Below are positions 36,861-36,947 of a DNA stretch of 64,000 nucleotides, one piece after another. The first letter of the stretch is position 1, and each line of letters starts with the position of its first letter. The translations under genes were made by a program, and so were the position numbers. The DNA is from Escherichia coli (GTDB taxonomy: Bacteria > Pseudomonadota > Gammaproteobacteria > Enterobacterales > Enterobacteriaceae), in assembly GCF_045037415.1 (NCBI RefSeq), contig NZ_CP173438.1, one strand, 5' to 3'. Under the pieces are notes generated by a model, which saw only the letters and a list, made by a program, of their open reading frames with translations, ran no database searches and was not told where the DNA came from.

Positions 36861-36877
36861 TAGTTGAAGTTGTACTA

Positions 36878-36947
36878 CCCGGCGCAACAACGCCGGGATT
36901 TAGTTGCCGTGGAAACTTTCAGCCCATCTCTGCATGGGCTTTTTTCT
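36878..36947 (+). terminator. glnA 3' UTR with two hairpins (36878-36896; 36921-36947 followed by tttttt)
   Basis: Inverted repeats plus T-run. Confidence 0.6.

Follow-up and report, generated by a model that had tools for sequence, protein, structure and literature searches.

Does the 3' UTR of glnA in this E. coli genome give rise to a regulatory RNA that acts on other genes, and is the short variant found here functional? The E. coli glnA-glnL-glnG genes are present in the 64-kb window, by which we mean the whole stretch of DNA analysed. The parental gene of the putative sRNA, glnA, lies on the + strand at 35451–36860 and encodes glutamine synthetase (469 aa); it was taken from the ORF list, and RefSeq labels identical DNA glnA, glutamate--ammonia ligase. 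Its stop codon TAA (36858–36860) is followed directly by TAG (36861–36863), and the short allele therefore has the tandem in-frame stops TAA TAG (36858–36863) where K-12 has TAA GTG. On its 3' side, the glnA-glnL intergenic region is bounded by the downstream gene glnL (ntrB; 37034–38083, + strand). Just upstream of glnL, a TATAAT at 36991–36996 overlaps the palindrome TGCACTAAAATGGTGCA (36996–37012), an arrangement that agrees with the known NtrC-repressed glnL promoter.

The glnA 3' UTR starts at 36861 and ends with a U-tract at 36946, which gives a length of 85–86 nt. A sequence-only reading of this locus had put about 85 nt between the glnA stop and the terminator. That figure holds for the whole 3' UTR up to the end of the U-tract, but the gap from the stop codon to the foot of the terminator is about 60 nt. 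The same reading had described a strong terminator hairpin with a U-tract and an additional hairpin upstream of it, and both were recovered by a scan of the + strand. The upstream one, hairpin 1, occupies 36878–36897 (CCCGGCG-CAACAA-CGCCGGG; 7 G-C pairs, loop of 6 nt) and was also seen on folding. The Rho-independent terminator extends over 36921–36946 on the + strand and consists of a stem-loop at 36921–36940 (7 pairs, loop of 6 nt) and U6 at 36941–36946. The linker between the two hairpins is largely open and carries the GlnZ seed UUGCCGUGGAAA (36904–36915, + strand), which matches the published GlnZ seed exactly (PMC9731577) and is separated from the terminator stem by 5 nt.

Window positions 36841–36965 are identical to E. 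coli O157:H7 EDL933 over 125/125 nt (NZ_CP008957.1 4940069–4939945, reverse strand), and 36861–36945 corresponds to EDL933 4940049–4939965. The UTR also equals that of O157:H7 strain YB14-1 over 201/201 nt and is identical to the UTR of EPEC E2348/69. The K-12 reference genome has glnZ (b4836) annotated at the homologous position. The interval in EDL933 was mapped by 5'/3' RACE as an 85-nt RNA named EsrF (Jia et al. 2021, mBio, PMC8092317). The whole glnA 3' UTR at 36861–36945 (+ strand, 85 nt) has 100% identity to this RACE-mapped interval and corresponds to full-length short GlnZ, for which EsrF, 'O157-type' GlnZ and 'Class I' GlnZ are further names. Locus, length, seed, hairpin, terminator and flanks are the same, and there is no sequence difference. 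Judged by this identity, the feature in the window is the already characterised short GlnZ (EsrF); it is already known, and its mechanism is not new. The suggestion that the UTR could yield an sRNA related to GlnZ was thus borne out, with the published seed at 36904–36915 and a UTR identical to the functional O157:H7 allele. The statement that such an RNA had been described in enteric bacteria agrees with the literature on E. coli and Salmonella GlnZ, and alignment with published GlnZ returned 100% identity of the UTR to EDL933 EsrF and an exact seed region.

Identity, anatomy, conservation and predicted pairing were established for the window itself. Evidence for expression, for induction and for repression of targets, the last with compensatory mutants, comes from published work on the identical sequence in other strains. 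Three types of glnA 3' UTR have been described in E. coli, with lengths of 197 nt in K-12, 85 nt in O157 and 230 nt in O111 (Miyakoshi et al. 2022, eLife, PMC9731577). The same study defined the seed as 5'-UUGCCGUGGAAA-3' and detected GlnZ of all types together with processed species, O157 GlnZ included, in northern blots with glutamine as sole nitrogen source (PMC9731577). The O157 form was designated Class I GlnZ in another study and is rapidly induced on nitrogen deprivation (Walling et al. 2022, bioRxiv 10.1101/2022.04.01.486790). Overexpression of Class I GlnZ repressed glnP, sucA and aceE; mutation of the seed abolished repression, and a compensatory mutation in glnP brought it back (10.1101/2022.04.01.486790). 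Between them, these two studies used northern blots and reporter assays to show that the O157:H7 sequence is a functional GlnZ variant induced by nitrogen limitation. In EPEC, an Hfq RIL-seq study independently recovered an sRNA from the glnA 3'UTR (Pearl Mizrahi et al. 2021, PMC8550237). EsrF, the RNA of which is identical to that encoded in the window, binds Hfq and is absent in an hfq deletion mutant (PMC8092317). The sequence-only reading held that the function of this short variant could not be told from sequence. Here, exact identity to a tested allele settles function as far as sequence can.

Folding of the 86-nt RNA gave −28.3 kcal/mol (z = −2.31), and 5/200 shuffled sequences were as stable. 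Parts of the seed region, 36901–36907 and 36914–36916, are predicted to be paired in this fold. On average, the seed bases are unpaired with a probability of 0.61 in the 86-nt form; for a 48-nt form that begins at 36899 the value is 0.70. The terminator would act as a 3' Hfq-binding module.

Duplex prediction was carried out with window positions 36898–36920, which comprise the open linker and the seed, against K-12 intergenic regions, so that the targets are those of K-12 and not of the window strain; 300 shuffles served for comparison. The full 86-nt RNA was unusable as a query, since it gave unrealistically long duplexes in which intramolecular structure is ignored, and the query was restricted to linker and seed. 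The predicted duplexes lie at −48 to −27 from the start codon of sucA (−20.4 kcal/mol; 8/300 shuffles as good), at −22 to −11 of glnP (−18.4 kcal/mol; 12/300) and at −105 to −91 of aceE (−20.8 kcal/mol; 3/300). These statistics are modest (p about 0.01–0.04 against shuffles), as expected for seeds of 10–14 bp. For glnP, the predicted site is immediately 5' to the Shine-Dalgarno sequence, in agreement with the published site. The predicted aceE duplex includes C-99, a position validated by compensatory mutation (Miyakoshi et al., PMC9731577). The modelled pairing therefore coincides with the published target sites in sucA, glnP and aceE.

In K-12 and Salmonella, release of GlnZ needs RNase E and Hfq, and repression of sucA needs this release (Miyakoshi et al., PMC9731577). 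K-12 has two RNase E sites that flank the stop codon, and the upstream one is conserved in Salmonella (Miyakoshi et al., PMC9731577). A scan of the + strand of the window for the RN|WUU motif found an RNase E-like motif AG|UUU at 36835–36839, inside the 3' end of glnA, with a predicted cut between 36836 and 36837. This motif may correspond to the conserved 'upstream' RNase E site, which yields a 5'-extended precursor. Two overlapping motifs, GG|AUU and GA|UUU, lie at 36896–36901 on the + strand in the open linker and are candidate RNase E sites (cuts 36897|98 and 36898|99); the unpaired probability at 36898–36900 is 0.99. A further RN|WUU motif on this strand would be cut at 36916|17, between seed and terminator. 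Cleavage in the linker at 36897|98 or 36898|99 would free a species of about 47–48 nt with seed and terminator, the exact site being deduced from the motifs. For the short allele we infer RNase E processing and its exact cut sites by analogy, as the published RNase E dependence concerns the K-12 and Salmonella alleles only.

Upstream of glnA, the + strand carries a sigma-54-type, glnAp2-like promoter motif, TGGCACAGTTTTCGCT, at 35352–35367. It is the sole match to TGGCACN5TYGCW in the 64-kb window, where 0.17 would be expected by chance, and as the established NtrC-dependent glnAp2 promoter it would drive the parental mRNA when nitrogen is limiting. A consensus scan of the + strand between 35000 and 38000 gave no sigma-70-like promoter; the reach of such a scan does not extend to weak or non-sigma-70 sites. 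This result fits processing of the glnA mRNA better than independent transcription. Taken with the identity to a tested allele, we hold it very probable that 36861–36945 is short GlnZ, a product of the glnA mRNA that is induced by nitrogen limitation and represses sucA, glnP and aceE through its seed.

The distribution of the seed was followed in 120 loci from a collection with one genome per species. These were fetched without regard to the seed, solely by a degenerate pattern for the C-terminal GlnA residues EFELYYSV. Among 55 Enterobacterales loci, UUGCCGUGGAAA was exact in 37, had one mismatch in 6 and had two mismatches in 5. Seed (at most one mismatch) and terminator follow glnA as a module in 43/55 Enterobacterales, and the module occurred in 0/63 clearly non-enterobacterial loci (Vibrio, Aeromonas, Rheinheimera, Marinomonas, actinobacterial and others). 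Two 'Proteobacteria' MAGs carry the module, and both look enterobacterial. The distance from stop codon to seed ranges from 9 to 169 nt across the Enterobacterales loci. All 49 loci that retain the seed (3 mismatches or fewer) have the terminator GCCCAUC-N4-GAUGGGCUUUUUU only a few nt beyond it. The 100% identity of the UTR in many E. coli genomes and the conservation of seed and terminator across Enterobacterales indicate that the feature in the glnA 3' UTR is not due to chance.

When the terminator stem was aligned across 34 species, 98.5% of its cells were paired; 5/8 pairs are the same throughout, and 2 others each have a single compensatory change. The terminator is thus conserved as sequence and not as structure alone. 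The terminator is identical in the four aligned E. coli UTRs. Its loop has 6 nt in the window and 4 nt, often UUCG, in other genera, and the loop-closing pair 36927/36934 is broken (C·C, not C-G) only in the window among the 34 aligned sequences. The CUCC that follows UUUUUU (36947–36950) is retained in most Enterobacterales, with two C columns conserved at 90% or more, although the sRNA is expected to end before it. This CUCC may relate to read-through glnALG transcripts or to terminator efficiency.

Hairpin 1 recurs in Enterobacter cloacae and E. asburiae, where neither its stem nor its position differs from the window. Because of this recurrence the short form looks ancestral, which supports an earlier suggestion that the compact form came first and that insertions gave rise to the K-12 and O111 forms (Walling et al., 10.1101/2022.04.01.486790). 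Derivation of the short UTR by deletion from the K-12 form was considered and rejected, since Enterobacter shows the same order of hairpin 1, seed and terminator and K-12 and O111 differ by insertions.

To determine the frequency of each type in the species, 5,426 complete E. coli genomes were searched with megablast; in 5,425 the region was located between glnA and glnL. The UTRs fall into three length classes. Short and O111 types together account for 3,851 genomes (at least 80% cover of a 146-nt query that spans the short UTR), the O111 type (230 nt) for 993/5426 and the K-12 type for 1571/5426. Subtraction of 993 from 3,851 leaves about 2858/5426 genomes (53%) with the short form. The short form is the majority E. 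coli allele, and the laboratory K-12 form is a minority. The idea that the short variant is a degenerate form was rejected, as it is instead the commonest E. coli allele and probably has the ancestral architecture. One of the 5,426 genomes had no match to the glnA-glnL query, and two of the 5,425 matches come from records that carry the label plasmid. In strain AMSHJX01 the match is confined to the half of the query next to glnL, and the strain may have a disrupted or rearranged glnA 3' end or GlnZ. These allele counts are a new contribution of this work, as are the survey of the module across species, the finding of hairpin 1 in Enterobacter and the predictions of target-site pairing.

The other forms of GlnZ can be compared with that of the window. 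K-12 GlnZ (glnZ, b4836, 194 nt; 197-nt UTR; Class III) has the same locus and validated targets, and shares with the window a 20-nt block UUAGUUGCCGUGGAAACUUU that comprises the seed and its flanks, an identical terminator and the downstream DNA. It differs in that the seed lies 9 nt past the stop codon and an insertion that contains a REP lies between seed and terminator; it has neither hairpin 1 nor GGGAUUUAG, and its long stem is cut by RNase III. O111-type GlnZ (230-nt UTR) is the short form plus an insertion, with seed and terminator retained; 145 extra nt lie between hairpin 1 and the seed, whereas the window has no insertion there. This 145-nt insertion (about 500–645 of the locus fetched from E. 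coli E-93) is a repeated element, parts of which match other chromosomal sites at about 85% identity in up to 3 places per genome. It is perhaps a small MITE-like repeat. As in the window, the seed of Salmonella enterica GlnZ (185-nt UTR; Class II) immediately precedes the terminator. RNase E releases this RNA, which represses sucA and glnP, but an extra G beside the seed abolishes regulation of aceE and brings in deoD.

Rfam has no GlnZ family, and a search at permissive threshold returned Ysr49 (Yersinia sRNA 49, RF02766) as the only related match, at window positions 36841–36945 (34.1 bits, E = 4.4e-4; gathering score of 95 not reached). The 3' half of the Ysr49 model consists of GCCGUGGAAACUUUU and GCCCAUC..GAUGGGCUUUUU, which is the same seed-terminator module as in the window. 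Unlike the window, the family has additional segments inside the module, and its alignment appears narrow and confined to Yersinia. Even the glnA 3' end of Yersinia artesiana (locus 1916–2013) scored only 32.6 bits, far below the gathering score, and Ysr49 was therefore rejected as a test of membership. At gathering threshold, four enterobacterial loci, two of them from Yersinia, matched no family at their glnA 3' ends. Ysr49 is probably the Yersinia orthologue of GlnZ under another name; a literature search found no link between the two. The sRNA is unannotated in the PGAP-annotated E. coli records that we inspected, because Rfam lacks a GlnZ family, and only the curated K-12 record carries glnZ. 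Separately, the window has a strong Rfam match to the ES222 sRNA (RF02755) at 35160–35267 on the − strand (132.4 bits, E = 5e-27; gathering score 62). This match sits on the bipA strand between the divergent genes bipA(typA) and glnA, and it shares sequence with two NtrC-type palindromes upstream of glnA, TGCACCAATATGGTGC (35230–35245) and GCACTATATTGGTGCA (35263–35278).

Two other accounts of this UTR have to be weighed against a processed, seed-bearing GlnZ. In one, the 3' UTR acts only in cis: its hairpins stabilise the glnA mRNA and partly insulate glnLG, and no trans-acting RNA is made. The terminator is indeed real and strong by scan and fold, a separate glnL promoter region lies downstream (TATAAT 36991–36996), and deletion of the terminator in K-12 slightly lowered GlnA (PMC9731577). 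A structural role, however, leaves unexplained why a 12-nt single-stranded seed is exact in 37/55 Enterobacterales despite stop distances of 9–169 nt. Exchange of the UTRs of K-12, O157 and O111 left the levels of GlnA and NtrC unchanged (PMC9731577), and the identical allele, when overexpressed, showed seed-dependent repression of targets (10.1101/2022.04.01.486790). We consider a purely cis-acting UTR extremely unlikely. In the other account, that of Jia et al. 2021, the 85-nt RNA is a primary transcript from a promoter inside the 3' end of glnA, is repressed by NtrC and induced by high ammonium, and has activation of flhB as its main task. There, GGGAUUUAG pairs with the flhB 5' UTR and relieves Rho termination, which promotes motility and virulence. 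The evidence was obtained with the identical sequence and includes RACE, TEX resistance, a level independent of the glnA promoter on its deletion and higher abundance in high ammonium (PMC8092317), as well as an RNA-RNA gel shift with motif mutants and phenotypes in motility and colonisation (PMC8092317). The window contains GGGAUUUAG at 36895–36903, in the 3' arm of hairpin 1 and the linker, and the complementary CUAAAUCCC is found at −93 of K-12 flhB. On the other side, two independent groups found EsrF/O157-GlnZ to be induced by low and not by high nitrogen, and both state their disagreement with Jia et al. (PMC9731577; 10.1101/2022.04.01.486790). When K-12 or Salmonella glnA was expressed from a pBAD plasmid, GlnZ fragments appeared only with arabinose-induced transcription of glnA, and RNase E was required (PMC9731577). 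In our consensus scan, no sigma-70-like promoter was found near 36820–36860 on the + strand. The GGG of GGGAUUUAG is buried in the stem of hairpin 1, with an unpaired probability of about 0 at 36897, and the flhB duplex (−19.1 kcal/mol) was no better than shuffles (33/300 as good). As the main mechanism, this model seems improbable to us; the published results conflict over biogenesis of the short allele, its induction by high ammonium and flhB activation.

Part of that model could still hold beside GlnZ function. Only the short and O111-type alleles carry GGGAUUUAG, for which K-12 has GUGUUUUAG, and an allele-specific extra target is therefore conceivable. The short allele might then possess GGGAUUUAG as a second, allele-specific surface, and the choice between the 85-nt and the ~47-nt RNA might switch outputs; we regard this as a speculative and improbable proposal. 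The link to flhB is already published and disputed, and allele specificity and a processing switch would be new. If true, about 71% of complete E. coli genomes (short or O111) would couple nitrogen status to flhB besides sucA, glnP and aceE.

In the preferred reading, that of short GlnZ released from the glnA mRNA, nitrogen limitation would lead NtrC and sigma-54 to drive transcription of glnA, and most glnA transcripts would end at the intrinsic terminator at 36921–36946. RNase E with Hfq would cut in the immediate vicinity of the stop codon or at it, probably with a second cut in the linker, which would leave an RNA that retains seed and terminator. The seed at 36904–36915, with flanking sequence from 36898, would pair with the 5' UTRs of sucA, glnP and aceE and lower their expression. 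Repression of these three genes would reduce the drain on 2-oxoglutarate and the uptake of glutamine while glutamine synthetase is high. GlnZ ties nitrogen assimilation to carbon flux, in that the glnA mRNA itself releases an RNA restraining 2-oxoglutarate dehydrogenase, pyruvate dehydrogenase and glutamine import.
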